From contig NZ_LGHJ01000006.1 of the NCBI RefSeq assembly GCF_001306055.1, forward strand, positions 60,001-92,000: a stretch of 32,000 nt of DNA. Reading direction: 5' to 3'. The notes below the pieces were generated by a model. It ran no database searches, was not told where the DNA came from, and was given only the letters and a program-made list of their open reading frames with translations. Of the stretch, positions 5,758-26,512 are shown piece by piece; position 1 is the stretch's first letter; every line of letters starts with the position of its first letter. A program made the translations under genes and the position numbers. Source of the DNA: Bellilinea caldifistulae (GTDB lineage Bacteria; Chloroflexota; Anaerolineae; Anaerolineales; Anaerolineaceae).

Positions 5758-5823
5758 GCATGCTGCCCAGACCGTTTGAAACAGCCGAACAAATTGACCG
5801 CTGGCTGAATTCCGCAAAACCCC

Positions 5824-5851
5824 TTGACTAGAACAGATTTTCTGATAAAAT
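5824..5851 (+). promoter_or_regulatory. Promoter with embedded operator-like AGAAC-N4-TTTCT (copy 1 of a shared module)
   Basis: TTGACT (5824-5829), 16-nt spacer, then TGaTAAAAT extended -10 (5843-5851). A second TATAAT lies at 5855-5860. 27/29 identical to 24539-24567. Confidence 0.6.
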
Positions 5852-5929
5852 AGGATATAATCAGTCAACAATTGTAAGGTCGTATCAACCGCCGCTGGCT
5901 GACGGGCTTACTTCAAAAGGAGATCCAAA

Positions 5930-7045
5930 ATGAGCAGTGTCCGCGTACTGGTTGGCACCCGGAAGGGAGCCTTTATTCTATCGTCCGACGGCAAACGGCA
6001 AAACTGGCAGGTGGACGGGCCACACTTTGGCGGGTGGGAAATCTTCCATCTCAAAGGCTCGGCGGTTGATCCCAATCGAATTTATGCCTCACAGGCAAGT
6101 GAGTGGTTCGGACAGGTCATGCACCGCTCGGATGATGGCGGCAAAACCTGGCAGACGGTTGGTAATCAGTTTCAATACCGCGGCGAGGTCGGCAGCCACC
6201 AGTGGTTTGATGGAAGCATCAAGCCGTGGACCTTTCGCCGCGTCTGGCATCTGGAACCTTCTCCGCTGGACGCCGATACGGTCTTTGCCGGGGTGGAAGA
6301 TGCCGCTCTGTTCCGCTCGACGGACGGCGGGCAAACGTGGGAAGAATTGAACGGGCTGCGCCAGCACGGCACAAGCGCCGACTGGCATCCCGGAGCGGGC
6401 GGTCTGTGTTTGCACACCATTCTGCTCGACCCGCAAAACCCGCGGCGGATGTTCGTTGCCATTTCGGCAGCCGGCGCTTTCCGCAGTGATGATGGCGGTG
6501 AAAGTTGGTTGCCCATCAACCGCGGGTTGAAATCGGATTACATTCCCGACCCAGAGGCGGAATTTGGTCATTGCGTTCACCGGATTGCCCTGCACCCCGC
6601 CCGTCCGCAGGTTTTGTTCATGCAGAAACACTGGGATGTGATGCGCAGTGATGATGCCGGAGAACACTGGTACGAAATCAGCGGTAACTTACCCAGCGAT
6701 TTTGGTTTTGTGGTGGCGGTTCATGCGCACGAGCCGGATACCCTCTACGTTTTACCCATCAAAAGCGACTCGGAACACTACCCGCCCGAAGGAAAATTGC
6801 GGGTGTACCGCAGCCGAACGGGTGGAAACGAGTGGGAGGCGCTCACCCACGGTTTACCCCAGCAAAATTGCTACGTCAACGTCCTGAGAGACGCCATGGC
6901 GGTGGATGAACTCGATCCGGGCGGGGTGTACTTTGGCACCACCGGCGGGCAGGTGTATGTTTCAGCGGATGGCGGGGATCACTGGCAGTCCATCGTCCAC
7001 GATTTACCGGCCGTGCTTTCGGTTGAGGTGCAAACCCTGCCATGA
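5930..7045 (+). CDS. Cytoplasmic BNR/Asp-box repeat beta-propeller protein (sialidase-fold / Ycf48-like)
   Basis: Six Asp-box-like motifs: [52 protein letters not shown]. No signal peptide is visible. SD AAAGGAG at 5914-5920. Confidence 0.75.
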
Positions 7046-7338
7046 TACGCGTCATCCTGCCGGCTCATTTACGGCGTCTGGCAAACCTCAGTGGCGAAGT
7101 CCACCTGGATCTCTCGCCGCCGGTCACGCCGCGCCGGATTGTGGATGAGATCGAACGGCTTTACCCGGCTCTGCGCGGCACAATCCGCGATGCGCACACC
7201 CGGCAACGCCGCCCCTACCTGCGTTTTTTTGCCTGCCGGGAAGATGTCTCTTTTGCCGACCCTGACCAGCCGGTAGCCCCGCCGGTAGCAACCGGAGAAG
7301 AGCCGTTCATTATTTTAGGCGCCATTGCCGGCGGTTAG
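7042..7338 (+). CDS. MoaD/ThiS-family ubiquitin-like (beta-grasp) protein with C-terminal Gly-Gly
   Basis: 98 aa, ending ...[10 protein letters not shown]-stop. Its start overlaps the stop of the BNR gene as ATGA (7042-7045). Length and the terminal GG are typical of sulfur-carrier/Ubl proteins. Confidence 0.65.
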
Positions 7339-7354: not shown

Positions 7355-7383
7355 TTGACATTACACCTTACCAGCGGTACAAT
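7355..7383 (+). promoter_or_regulatory. Near-consensus sigma70 promoter of tRNA-Phe
   Basis: TTGACA (7355-7360), 17-nt spacer, TACAAT (7378-7383). The predicted TSS is about 6 nt before the tRNA 5' end. Confidence 0.7.
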
Positions 7384-7395
7384 TTGACCGCAATC

Positions 7396-7468
7396 GCCGA
7401 GATAGCTCAGTTGGTAGAGCACGCGACTGAAAATTGCGGTGTCGCCAGTTCGATTCTGGCTCTCGGCA
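7396..7468 (+). tRNA. tRNA-Phe: tRNA-Phe (anticodon GAA)
   Basis: Cloverleaf folded by hand: acceptor GCCGAGA/TCTCGGC, D arm GCTC-AGTTGGTA-GAGC, anticodon stem CGCGA/TTGCG with loop CTGAAAA, T arm GCCAG-TTCGATT-CTGGC, discriminator A. The 3' CCA is not encoded (next bases are CAC). Confidence 0.9.
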
Positions 7469-7471
7469 CAC

Positions 7472-7498
7472 CCCCCGCTCCCTGCGCGGGGGTTTTTT
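7472..7498 (+). terminator. Rho-independent terminator after tRNA-Phe
   Basis: Stem CCCCCGC (7472-7478) pairs with GCGGGGG (7486-7492). The loop is 7 nt and is followed by TTTTTT (7493-7498). Confidence 0.8.
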
Positions 7499-23174: not shown

Positions 23175-24269
23175 TTAGCGGGCGGCTGCAGCGCGCTTTT
23201 CCAGCGCCGAGCGAATCATCAAAAACTCACCAATGTTTTCCATGGTGACCAACCCGACCAGCTGCCCGTCGGCTACTACTGGCAGGGTGTGGCACTCGCG
23301 TTCCTGCAATTTGCGCGAGACTTCTTCCAGCATGTCGTTGATGTGGGCGCTTTCGAATTTACAGTCCATCGCCGCCGAAACCGGGGCGTTCTGCCCCAGC
23401 CGCTGAAGGGCATCCACCAGACTTTTGCGGGTCAAAATTCCCACTACGCGGTCACCCGAAAGCACGGGGAAGTCCTGCTGGGTACTGCTCATCAGCAGTT
23501 CAATGGCGCGGCTGAGCGGCTCGCCTTCCTGCAGGGTACGGAAATCGGTGACCATTGCCTGCGAAACCGGAATCCCGCTGAGGGCCGATTTCATCTGTAC
23601 CATGCTGGCTTCCTGGGCTGCGCCGATATAGACAAAGAAGGCGATGAACACCAGAAACGGATTGGTAAACAGACCGATGAAGCCAAACACAAACGCCAGG
23701 GCTTGACCGAGGGTGGCGGCTGCCTGAGTAGCCTGAGTGTAGGGCAGGCGGGTTGCCAGCAAAGCCCGCACCACCCGTCCGCCGTCCATTGGGAAGGCCG
23801 GAATCAGGTTGAAGCCCGCCAGAAACAGGTTAACCACCATCAATCTTTCAAGGAACGGCCCGCCGGTCATGCTCAGCGAACCGATTGGCTGCAATGTGCC
23901 GGTCAACAGCAACCCGATGAACAACACCGCTGAGATGACCACATTCACCAGCGGGCCGGCCAGCGCCACCCACAATTCCTGCATCGGTTTTTCCGGCATG
24001 CGTTCCAGTCGGGCTACACCGCCGATGGGCAGCAGGGTGATGTCTTTGGTTTGAATGCCAAAACGACGGGCGGCAAGGGCGTGGCCGAGTTCATGCAGCA
24101 CCACACACAAAAACAACGCCAGTAAAAAGCCAACCCCCACGGCTACCGCGTTGAGCGAACGCCCCACCAGATAGTAACTGAATGCCACCCAGCCCAAAAT
24201 CAACAGGAAAGTGGCATGGATTTGAATATCAATTCCTGCCACCCGTGCAATTTTCAACGACCATTTCAT
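23175..24269 (-). CDS. Site-2 protease family (M50) zinc metalloprotease with C-terminal CBS pair
   Basis: HELGHALAARRFGI (HExxH), LLPIGGVARLE, NLIPAFPMDGGR, followed by two CBS-like modules. SD GAGGA lies before ATG 24269. Confidence 0.85.
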   Translation of the reverse strand: MKWSLKIARVAGIDIQIHATFLLILGWVAFSYYLVGRSLNAVAVGVGFLLALFLCVVLHELGHALAARRFGIQTKDITLLPIGGVARLERMPEKPMQELWVALAGPLVNVVISAVLFIGLLLTGTLQPIGSLSMTGGPFLERLMVVNLFLAGFNLIPAFPMDGGRVVRALLATRLPYTQATQAAATLGQALAFVFGFIGLFTNPFLVFIAFFVYIGAAQEASMVQMKSALSGIPVSQAMVTDFRTLQEGEPLSRAIELLMSSTQQDFPVLSGDRVVGILTRKSLVDALQRLGQNAPVSAAMDCKFESAHINDMLEEVSRKLQERECHTLPVVADGQLVGLVTMENIGEFLMIRSALEKRAAAAR

Positions 24270-24539
24270 TTCTCATCCTCACTCACTTAAACTTTACTTG
24301 AACAATCAATGTCCATACGGATAACCTTATCTTACTATATTGATGAGTAAGTATCAATTTTTGATTAACGATCTGTATAAAGCATGTTAGTGAGCAAGTA
24401 AACTTCGTTGATGTTGAGAATGTATCTCCAAAGACAAAGGAGGTTACAATGTCCGAATGGATTTTCAATGATGAAAAAACAGCTCGAAGAAACACCATCA
24501 GATGATTCTTAACATGAAAATTTGATGAAAAGTTGCCTC

Positions 24540-24567
24540 TTGACTAGAACAAATATTCTGATAAAAT
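24540..24567 (+). promoter_or_regulatory. Promoter with embedded operator-like AGAAC-N4-ATTCT (copy 2 of the shared module)
   Basis: TTGACT (24540-24545), 16-nt spacer, TGaTAAAAT (24559-24567). A second TATAAT lies at 24575-24580. 27/29 identical to 5823-5851. Confidence 0.6.
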
Positions 24568-24670
24568 GGATGTATATAATCCAAATTAAGATTCGTCCTG
24601 ATCACGCATCCTCTCACCTCTCAGATGAATCCCTTACCGGCAATACCGGACCACCAAAGGAGTAAAAGGT

Positions 24671-25570
24671 ATGAATCCGATAAACCGTAAAATTGTTCCG
24701 TTTCTCTGGTATAACCAGGAAGCTGGCGAAGCAGCAAAGCTTTACCTGCACGCTTTTCCAGATTCGTCTCTTCGCAGTGTCACCACCTTTACTGAGACCC
24801 CCTCCGGCACTGTGAAAATTTATGCAGCCGATCTTTGGGACAGCGAGTTCCATTTGATGAGCGCCGGCCCGGAGTTTAAATTCACGCCGGTAATTTCTTT
24901 CCTGGTGGCTTGTAGTAGCGCAGCGGAGGTTGACAGTGTCTGGCAAAAACTCTCGCCGGAAGGTTCTGTGCTGATGGAACTGGGAAGTTATCCATTTAGT
25001 GAACGCTTTGGGTGGTTGCAGGATAAATACGGCGTATCGTGGCAGATGATGTTGTTTTCGGGAGATCGGCCCATCCGCCAGAGAATGATCCCGTTTTTGA
25101 TGTTTACCGGTCAACAGTTCGGCCGGGCAGAAGAAGCCATTCGTTTCTACGCCTCAATATTTCCGAACAGCGGTGTGGAGGAAATTCAACATTATGAAAA
25201 AGGAGAAGAACCAAATCAGCCCGGCACGGTTAAATTTGCCGAATTTACCCTGCATGGGCAGTCGTTTGCCGCCATAGACAGTTCCTATGAGCATGGTTTC
25301 ACTTTCAATGAAGCCATTTCGTTTGTGGTGAATTGCGAAACGCAAGAAGAAATTGATTATTATTGGGAAAAACTTTCGGCTGATCCCGAGGCGGAGATGT
25401 GCGGCTGGCTGAAGGATCGTTTTGGTGTATCATGGCAGATCGTCCCAACAATTATGTATGAAATGCAGCAGACAAATGACCCCATCCGGTTGACACGCTT
25501 GACCAGGGCCTTTCTCCAAATGAAGAAATTTGATATTGCTGCCTTAGAAAGGGCTTATGAAGGCAGCTGA
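24671..25570 (+). CDS. Tandem-domain VOC-superfamily protein (PhnB / 3-demethylubiquinone-9 3-methyltransferase-domain-like, PF06983-type, x2)
   Basis: Two homologous halves. Half 1: IVPFLWYNQEAGEAAKLY...FGWLQDKYGVSWQMM. Half 2: IPFLMFTGQQFGRAEEAIRFY...CGWLKDRFGVSWQIVP. SD AAAGGAG at 24655-24661. G+C is visibly lower than the flanking genes. Confidence 0.8.
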   Translation: MNPINRKIVPFLWYNQEAGEAAKLYLHAFPDSSLRSVTTFTETPSGTVKIYAADLWDSEFHLMSAGPEFKFTPVISFLVACSSAAEVDSVWQKLSPEGSVLMELGSYPFSERFGWLQDKYGVSWQMMLFSGDRPIRQRMIPFLMFTGQQFGRAEEAIRFYASIFPNSGVEEIQHYEKGEEPNQPGTVKFAEFTLHGQSFAAIDSSYEHGFTFNEAISFVVNCETQEEIDYYWEKLSADPEAEMCGWLKDRFGVSWQIVPTIMYEMQQTNDPIRLTRLTRAFLQMKKFDIAALERAYEGS

Positions 25571-25650
25571 TCGGTTAATTGAATTGGAGTGGATTTTTTC
25601 CGGCGGTAGAACCGGCCAGTGGTTTGGATAAGGGAGAAATCCGTTAATTG

Positions 25651-25692
25651 AATAAAATTCCTGCAGCCATCCTGTTCGTTGGGTGGCTGCAG
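25651..25692 (-). terminator. Rho-independent terminator of surE (possibly bidirectional)
   Basis: 12-bp stem CTGCAGCCATCC (25661-25672) pairs with GGGTGGCTGCAG (25681-25692), including one G-U pair. On the minus strand it is followed by GAATTTTATT. Confidence 0.7.
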
Positions 25693-25711
25693 TGCCGTGT
25701 GCGTTTTTCTG

Positions 25712-26512
25712 TTACGCCGACTCCAAAAGAGGATGACCGATTTCCTGATCCCACTCCCATTGATTCAATTCGGGGAAGAGGGAGTAGGCGGTCAGGTCGA
25801 GTTTAAGAGGGGTGATCGAAACAAAACCATCCGCCACGGCGCCGATGTCGCTGCCCCGTTCGGGAATGCCGGTTGGCGAGTCCCCGCTGATCCAGTAATA
25901 CGGGCGGCCGCGCGGGTCTACCCGCGAATCGAGTTTGTCGTGATACACGCGCAGTCCCATCCGGGTCAGACGGTAACCTTTGATTTGATTCATCGGTAAA
26001 AAGGGAATGTTGACATTCAGTAAATTCCCTTCCGGCAGGCCGTTCTGAATGACGGCGCGGGTGATCTGGCGGGCAACCTGCTCGGCAGCCTGAAAATCGG
26101 CCAGGGTGAGGTGGTTTTTGGGTGAATCGAGCGAGAAAGCAATCGCCGGCAGTCCCCAAATGGCTGCTTCCATCGCCGCGGTAACTGTCCCGGAGTAGGT
26201 GACATCATGCCCAAGGTTGGCGTAGGGGTTAATTCCGGAAACCACCAGATCCACTTTTTCGCCCAAAAAATTGCAGATTGCCAGTGCCACGCAGTCCGAA
26301 GGTGCGCCGTCAGTGGCAAAGGCGGAGGTGCCGTCTTCCAACGGCATTTCTTTGACTCGCAACGGCCGGTCAAGTGTTTTGACATGCCCGGAAGCCGACC
26401 AGTTGCGGTCAGGGGCCAGCACACTGACCTTGCCGAGCGGTCTGACCGCCTGCGCCAGCGCCAGCAGCCCCGGCGCGTGAATGCCGTCATCATTGGTGAC
26501 CAGAATGTGCAT
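25712..26512 (-). CDS. surE: 5'/3'-nucleotidase SurE
   Basis: The N-terminus MHILVTNDDGIHAPGLLAL and GINPYANLGHDVTYSGTVTAAMEA are canonical SurE blocks. SD GGGAGG lies before the ATG. Confidence 0.9.
   Translation of the reverse strand: MHILVTNDDGIHAPGLLALAQAVRPLGKVSVLAPDRNWSASGHVKTLDRPLRVKEMPLEDGTSAFATDGAPSDCVALAICNFLGEKVDLVVSGINPYANLGHDVTYSGTVTAAMEAAIWGLPAIAFSLDSPKNHLTLADFQAAEQVARQITRAVIQNGLPEGNLLNVNIPFLPMNQIKGYRLTRMGLRVYHDKLDSRVDPRGRPYYWISGDSPTGIPERGSDIGAVADGFVSITPLKLDLTAYSLFPELNQWEWDQEIGHPLLESA

Follow-up and report, generated by a model that had tools for sequence, protein, structure and literature searches.

Two nearly identical promoter modules in a 32,000-nucleotide stretch of the genome of Bellilinea caldifistulae, a member of the Anaerolineae in the phylum Chloroflexota (contig NZ_LGHJ01000006.1, positions 60,001 to 92,000; hereafter the window), each enclose a 14-bp dyad, AGAAC-N4-(T/A)TTCT, in the spacer between their -35 and -10 hexamers, and comparison of orthologous promoters lends good support to this dyad being an operator of the Cheo/LexA-box type. 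The first module lies upstream of a gene pair coding for a BNR/Sortilin-like beta-propeller and a small ubiquitin-like protein (Ubl) with a C-terminal GG, and the second upstream of a gene for a PhnB-like protein of the VOC/glyoxalase superfamily. We consider it fairly probable, going by the sequences, that a LexA-type repressor occludes this strong promoter and thereby co-regulates the BNR/Ubl and VOC genes, as well as DUF1761 and AraC-VOC genes in relatives. Repression from a site within the spacer of a promoter is a textbook mechanism; the noteworthy part is that the almost invariant BNR and GG-terminated Ubl pair and the VOC genes appear to form a conserved target in Chloroflexota.

The two 29-nt copies of the module, CTTGACTAGAACAGATTTTCTGATAAAAT (5823-5851) and CTTGACTAGAACAAATATTCTGATAAAAT (24539-24567), are identical at 27 of 29 positions and, like all elements described in this and the following paragraph, are on the plus strand. 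They had been pointed out in an earlier note made from the letters of the window alone, and direct reading together with shuffled sequences upheld their positions, common orientation and degree of identity. From 5' to 3' each copy consists of the -35 hexamer TTGACT (5824-5829 in the BNR/Ubl promoter, where it is conserved in orthologs, and 24540-24545 in the VOC promoter), the 14-bp dyad (AGAACAGATTTTCT at 5830-5843, with the core GAAC-N4-TTTC, and AGAACAAATATTCT at 24546-24559, with the core GAAC-N4-ATTC), the dinucleotide G-A and the -10 hexamer TAAAAT (5846-5851 and 24562-24567). In both copies the box occupies positions 1-14 of the resulting 16-nt spacer, and its last T and the next G (5843-5844 in copy 1) constitute the TG of an extended -10 element, TGaTAAAAT (5843-5851 and 24559-24567); the box therefore overlaps the promoter elements, a position suited to repression. 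In a promoter scan both copies ranked near the top of the sigma-70-like sites in the window, with 10 of 12 hexamer matches, the 16-nt spacer and the TG present, in agreement with the promoter originally proposed. The copies differ at two positions only, namely the second base of the N4 (G/A) and box position 10 (T/A, with G in the canonical Cheo box), which is where the earlier note had placed the differences. Each matches 7 of the 8 core bases of GAAC-N4-GTTC, with intact AA/TT pairs and an AT-rich N4, the single core mismatch at box position 10 affecting the inner base of one arm.

Just 3' of both copies GGAT and TATAATC recur, and each gene is preceded by a Shine-Dalgarno sequence AAAGGAG (5916-5922 for the BNR gene and 24656-24662 for the VOC gene) and starts with an ATG 78 nt past copy 1 (5930) or 103 nt past copy 2 (24671), all as first described. 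The -10-like TATAAT after copy 1 (5856-5861) probably lies at or near the transcription start. It is kept in the BNR orthologs of the Bellilinea clade; the element, found at 24575-24580 downstream of copy 2, is missing from the VOC orthologs L058 and L059 and from the AraC and DUF1761 promoters. It was rejected as a real -10 element because there is no acceptable -35 at a distance of 16-18 nt and because it is not kept in the VOC orthologs.

A degenerate pattern covering both copies matches the window at these two sites and nowhere else, and it had no match in 100 shuffled sequences with preserved dinucleotide composition. When at most one mismatch is allowed, the window has 11 sites for the bare 12-mer GAAC-N4-GTTC, the expected number being 11.7, and AGAAC-N5-TTCT with at most one mismatch is likewise at chance frequency; the case thus rests on promoter context and on conservation.

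Given that pattern searches return matching sites only, BNR orthologs were fetched by protein similarity, and a Cheo-type box was found in the promoters of all five Chloroflexota BNR/Ubl orthologs obtained in this manner. The box of the Caldilineaceae ortholog, TTGACGtgagCGAACGAATGTTCTAAAAT, is a perfect GAAC-N4-GTTC, while the others are AGAACATATGTTTT (also given as TTGACAaagcAGAACATATGTTTTACAAT) in Ardenticatenaceae, AGAATAAACGTTCT (also given as TTGACAatctAGAATAAACGTTCTAGAAT) in L057, AGAAAATATGTTCC (also given as TTGCCAaaacAGAAAATATGTTCCATAAT) in Promineifilaceae and AGAATAAATGTTCT (also given as TTGACAaatAGAATAAATGTTCTATAAT) in Anaerolineae SCUK01. The cores in these distant orthologs read GAAC-N4-GTTC, GAAC-N4-GTTT, GAAT-N4-GTTC or GAAA-N4-GTTC, with exactly one core mismatch in four of the five boxes, and the imperfect arm can be on either side of the dyad. 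The boxes lie 3-4 nt further from the -35 hexamer than in the window, overlap the first T of the -10 hexamer and are embedded in a 17-nt spacer. The dyad is retained while the hexamers, the register and the imperfect side change, a pattern characteristic of sites to which a symmetric dimer binds and one that argues against both a copied promoter and an effect of spacer composition. The box of the BNR/Ubl genes is thus present, in different registers, in six Chloroflexota lineages, as is expected of a phylogenetic footprint. The VOC orthologs at L058 and L059 (80% protein identity) keep TTGACTAGAACATAATTTCTGATATTAT (also given as TTGCCTCTTGACTAGAACATAATTTCTGATATTAT) as a conserved island, around which the 5' untranslated region (UTR) and most of the upstream spacer have diverged. 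Hence, the comparison of orthologous upstream regions that the earlier note had suggested recovered the box in the BNR/Ubl orthologs and the module as an island in the VOC orthologs.

A scan of one genome per species (185,579 genomes, pattern TTGACNAGAACNNNNNTTCTNNTAWAAT) recovered 25 loci, the window's own genome not being among them. The Bacillota matches with GTTCT are genuine SOS promoters: two, as tblastn against LexA (69% identity) and the NCBIfam YneB model confirm, are in the divergent region between lexA and yneA/yneB, and there is one each at uvrA and at a radical-SAM repair gene (TIGR03916), where CGAATATATGTTCT stands beside AGAACGAATGTTCT. The 13 Chloroflexota matches belong to about six gene families. 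Box position 10 is always T in the BNR/Ubl matches and is also T at an AraC-type gene (DUF6597 + HTH_18) that is followed by a gene for a 135-aa VOC protein; it is G in two families of small unknown proteins, and among the orthologs of a DUF1761 membrane protein it is G in L017, L035, L036 and L044, T in L009 and A in L027. At a Chloroflexia promoter (L021, 6429-6530) a canonical box in the spacer is accompanied by a one-mismatch box right after the -10 hexamer and by a weak third box upstream, and on the metagenome contig L035 another one-mismatch box directly follows the -10 hexamer of a DNA methyltransferase gene. A corresponding scan of all JGI metagenomes (pattern GACNAGAACNNNNNTTCTGATAAAAT) recovered 21 stretches, of which 17 represent orthologs of the BNR, VOC or DUF1761 genes and four look like chance matches; the loci added by it comprise 14 of BNR, one of VOC and three of DUF1761. 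In the 16 further BNR loci of the Bellilinea clade (2 from genomes and 14 from metagenomes) both arms are invariant and only the N4 varies (AGAT, AAAT, ATAT, AAGT), and each gene family keeps its own module in its orthologs, with family-specific flanks. As far as can be read from the promoters, then, the anatomy of the module is clear, the operator is conserved across lineages, and canonical and one-mismatch boxes are equivalent at orthologous genes. The assignment of the spacer element to the Cheo/LexA-box type in the earlier note is accordingly borne out by the canonical or other single-mismatch boxes at orthologous Chloroflexota promoters and by the same layout at the SOS genes of Bacillota.

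Certain individual loci from these scans also deserve comment. The L021 box precedes the gene for a 267-aa membrane protein that adjoins mreB; on account of its boxes and this neighbor, the protein is a candidate damage-induced inhibitor of cell growth or division. The AraC-type genes with the module (L014 2986-3850, L023 and L025 2517-3381), each followed by the gene for the 135-aa VOC protein, start 6 nt after the -10 hexamer, and their mRNA is thus probably leaderless. An identical 20-mer, TTGACAAGAACGGATTTTCT, is present in tRNA gene promoters of one WOR-3 genome (L007 89-116) and one Lachnospiraceae genome (L018 6123-6150), which may be due to chance, given the constraints of the search pattern, but warns against taking all one-mismatch boxes for LexA sites.

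In Firmicutes and Actinobacteria it is well established that LexA recognizes GAAC-N4-GTTC (PMC3323433; PMC4551915). The window copies share with the Gram-positive Cheo or SOS box (CGAAC-N4-GTTCG, bound by LexA/DinR) the 14-bp dyad, the GAAC/GTTC arms, the AT-rich N4 and the overlap with the -35/-10 region, and the layout of the Bacillota matches at lexA-yneA/yneB, uvrA and the radical-SAM repair gene, TTGAC-N-AGAAC-N4-GTTCT-NN-TATAAT, is identical to theirs. Arms with one mismatch also occur naturally among Bacillota boxes (L008, L005, L022). Conversely, the window copies depart from the Gram-positive box in having T or A in place of the canonical G, a feature conserved in the Bellilinea clade, and A/T rather than C/G as the outer bases (AGAAC...GTTCT). 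Their targets are likewise not the classical repair genes of the Gram-positive SOS response, the sites of which in Bacillus subtilis include lexA, yneA, uvrB, dinB and recA. According to Groban et al. (NAR 2005), the AA/TT pairs reportedly are the essential operator bases in B. subtilis, and both window copies keep them in the arms of the dyad. The expectation that LexA is involved here stems from a member of the same phylum: Fernandez de Henestrosa et al. (J Bacteriol 2002, 184:6073) are said to have found that LexA of Dehalococcoides ethenogenes (Chloroflexi) binds GAAC-N4-GTTC, the same motif, although this organism belongs to the class Dehalococcoidia and not to Anaerolineae. The targets reported in that study are said to be lexA and uvrA, and not BNR/Ubl or VOC genes.

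These observations suggest a mechanism for which we infer LexA as the binding protein, repression as the mode of action and DNA damage as the inducing signal. Each copy is a strong promoter of the housekeeping-sigma type, with TTGACT as its -35, TGnTAAAAT as its extended -10 and a spacer of 16 nt, and a dimeric repressor, most likely LexA, sitting on approximately -34 to -15 would keep RNA polymerase off both promoters. Upon DNA damage, activated RecA would induce the self-cleavage of LexA, and both operons would be released together. The single mismatch in the half-site proximal to the -10 element probably weakens the two operators, which might result in a leakier or earlier induction. That exactly one mismatch is present in four of the five BNR boxes that were not selected for the motif is a hint that selection favors a weak operator at the BNR operon. 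We would further propose, as a tentative idea on which our doubts somewhat outweigh our confidence, that the LexA-type box of Chloroflexota has a conserved non-classical target in the BNR propeller and the GG-terminated Ubl, together with VOC/PhnB-like proteins.

Searches by tblastn with LexA and RecA of B. subtilis and Escherichia coli against all fetched loci recovered lexA in two Bacillota loci only, and neither lexA nor recA in a Chloroflexota locus. A protein search with B. subtilis LexA had only Bacillus among the matches listed, the matches listed in a tblastn search of plasmids with LexA included none from Chloroflexi, and a literature search on LexA in Chloroflexi or Anaerolinea retrieved nothing specific from the collection searched. 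Several observations weigh against LexA as the protein acting on these boxes. None of the 13 Chloroflexota matches of the genome scan is at a classical SOS gene, as against 4 of about 10 Bacillota matches. Neither window copy has the G of GTTC, and the BNR, VOC and AraC genes of the Bellilinea clade invariably show T or A at position 10; such a fixed T/A could indicate a shifted specificity or a different protein. Beyond Chloroflexota, the region upstream of the BNR/Ubl genes in the gammaproteobacterium Thiogranum has no convincing CTGT-N8-ACAG, and that in Lewinellaceae (Bacteroidota) has neither CTAA-N5-TTAG nor GGA-N5-TCC; with no recognizable SOS box of their own lineage in these two cases, SOS control of BNR/Ubl is therefore not universal. 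Finally, the one-mismatch layout at tRNA genes (L007, L018) implies that such matches can arise without LexA.

These points leave room for a genuine operator for a different repressor, either a LexA paralog or an unrelated regulator with a preference for AGAAC-N4-WTTCT, governing a genotoxin or xenobiotic regulon in response to a signal other than RecA-mediated DNA damage. None of the Chloroflexota genes found with the box is a classical one (their products are BNR/Ubl, AraC with DUF6597, DUF1761, VOC/PhnB-like and small unknown proteins), three gene families of the Bellilinea clade have T or A throughout at position 10, and the gene for the AraC-type regulator itself bears the module, which could mean autoregulation. 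AraC-family proteins, however, normally activate from sites upstream of the -35 element and not via a dyad in the spacer, a habit that does not fit the present arrangement. Moreover, canonical LexA boxes are found at orthologs in other Chloroflexota (BNR in Caldilineaceae; DUF1761 in L017, L035, L036 and L044), canonical and variant boxes coexist at one L021 promoter and on one L035 contig, and no candidate gene for an alternative regulator is conserved beside the targets, which together lead us to regard a different repressor as unlikely. A precedent for such targets under non-LexA control is offered by the WYL regulators SiwR and PafBC of mycobacteria, the DNA-damage regulons of which include DinB-like or glyoxalase-like genes (PMC10693628). 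The present targets are reminiscent of this mycobacterial feature, namely the induction by genotoxic stress of small uncharacterized proteins that belong to the DinB and glyoxalase/VOC superfamilies. SiwR and PafBC are nevertheless activators that sense single-stranded DNA and bind upstream of the promoter, at an imperfect palindrome, whereas the window has a LexA-type dyad embedded in the spacer, and no WYL gene was seen nearby. Operators of certain other known repressors were also considered. The Rex consensus is TTGTGAA-N4-TTCACAA (arms TGTGAA/TTCACA); a Rex operator was rejected as only the GAA...TTC core is common to both, the flanks in the module reading CTAGAA and TTCTGA. Operators of the CtsR or CIRCE type were rejected by inspection, the arms of their consensus sequences not matching the dyad.

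The likeness of the two copies might alternatively be explained with no repressor at all, if both simply represent the same very strong constitutive promoter and the resemblance of their spacers results from constraints of promoter strength or from chance. Both are indeed near-consensus sigma-70 promoters with an extended -10 element, the 12-mer by itself is no more frequent in the window than expected by chance, and the one-mismatch layout precedes tRNA genes in WOR-3 and Lachnospiraceae. Yet we know of no promoter spacer-sequence requirement of this kind, and such an explanation is rendered improbable by the persistence of the dyad in distant BNR orthologs through changes of register, hexamers and imperfect arm, by the restriction of variation in the Bellilinea clade to the N4 center, and by the additional boxes 3' of the -10 element in L021 and L035. 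If the same promoter DNA had come to lie before two genes by recent duplication, or by way of a repeat element or mobile cassette, this would account for the identity at 27 of 29 positions and for the recurrence of GGAT and TATAATC downstream, and the GC content around the VOC locus is indeed low (45-50%, with about 60% for the window as a whole). However, three overlapping known elements between them fix nearly every position, so that no duplication is required for this identity, and the likeness ends at the edges of the functional elements, the flanks and 5'UTRs being unrelated. A mobile promoter cassette or repeat element would be expected in many copies, with identity extending past the functional elements, but the approximately 40 kb of this genome that were examined contain only two. 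The exact pattern had no match in viral contigs, for which reason a phage or mobile origin was rejected. Furthermore, 17 of the 21 metagenome stretches are orthologs of the BNR, VOC and DUF1761 genes, and each gene family has its own module, with the downstream TATAATC not kept in the VOC orthologs. Duplication or mobility thus seems highly improbable.

Should LexA be confirmed as the repressor, the module would provide a first outline of an SOS-type regulon in Anaerolineae, an abundant but hard-to-culture class, and a testable condition, DNA damage or genotoxins, for the BNR and GG-terminated Ubl pair, the PhnB-like VOC proteins and DUF1761. If the box is damage-responsive, it would be the first functional lead for the orphan BNR/Ubl pair, which is shared across phyla, pointing to a genotoxin-response or damage-response function, and the SOS regulon of Anaerolineae would be one built around weak one-mismatch operators.

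The genes downstream of the two modules proved to be as the earlier note had described them. The first gene after copy 1 (5930-7045, plus strand) codes for a 371-aa BNR/Sortilin-like beta-propeller, identified by Pfam, whose nearest solved structure is 3b7f (E 1e-69), annotated as 'glycosyl hydrolase, BNR repeat'. Its stop overlaps by 4 nt the start of a 98-aa open reading frame (ORF) of the MoaD/ThiS-like type (7042-7338, plus strand) ending in ...GAIAGG; an AlphaFold2 model of the product (pLDDT 72) had its best matches in the SAMP1, MoaD and CysO folds, and this resemblance and the C-terminal GG identify it as a Ubl. The 299-aa product of the gene after copy 2 (24671-25570, plus strand) contains tandem PF06983 domains (Pfam E 2e-73), as in PhnB-like members of the VOC/glyoxalase superfamily, and is matched by the PhnB structure 3oms. 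BNR propellers with 78-83% identity and the same length of 371 aa are found in Anaerolineae, Caldilineaceae, Zixibacteria, Lewinellaceae and Thiogranum, and a 98-aa protein ending in GAI(A/S)GG, with a MoaD/SAMP1/CysO-like fold, is always encoded after the propeller (window, L050, L052, L055-L057, L060, L061). Across phyla the identity is about 80% for BNR as against about 55-58% for the Ubl partner. In an Anaerolineae genome (L061 183-2010) a gene for a 123-aa glyoxalase/VOC protein directly follows the BNR-Ubl pair, and the three genes apparently form one operon. Taken with the AraC-VOC module of L014 and L025, this implies that the targets are functionally linked, and the earlier description of the BNR/Ubl and VOC genes as unrelated does not fully hold, since a VOC gene can directly follow the BNR-Ubl pair and an AraC-VOC operon elsewhere carries the module.

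Orthologs from the Bellilinea clade retain the BNR 5'UTR (5852-5929), including those that have diverged in the DNA preceding the -35 hexamer; the core of this 5'UTR, TCAACCGCCGCTGGCTGACGG (5885-5905), is invariant, and the variation in the flanks might keep a stem. Nevertheless, a leader RNA element is not supported: RNAalifold found no covariation in this 5'UTR, single folds had non-significant z-scores, and an Rfam search of the leaders recovered tRNA-Phe only and no known leader RNA element. This tRNA-Phe gene (7396-7469) directly follows the BNR/Ubl operon; a near-consensus promoter of its own, TTGACA-17-TACAAT, lies at 7355-7383 and a GC-rich terminator at 7472-7492.

The intergenic region upstream of the VOC gene contains a second conserved island (24325-24383) that adjoins the divergent gene for an M50/CBS peptidase (23175-24269, minus strand). 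It includes an inverted repeat, ATTGAT (24339-24344) and ATCAAT (24353-24358), and a predicted minus-strand promoter, and may serve the peptidase gene as an operator. An 18-codon ORF (MSEWIFNDEKTARRNTIR, 24450-24506) with a strong AAGGAGG ribosome-binding site closely precedes the VOC promoter; this ORF is present in a near-identical metagenome contig (L033) and not conserved in L058 and L059. The fall in GC content around the VOC gene extends over 24001-26000 and may reflect a foreign origin of that gene.

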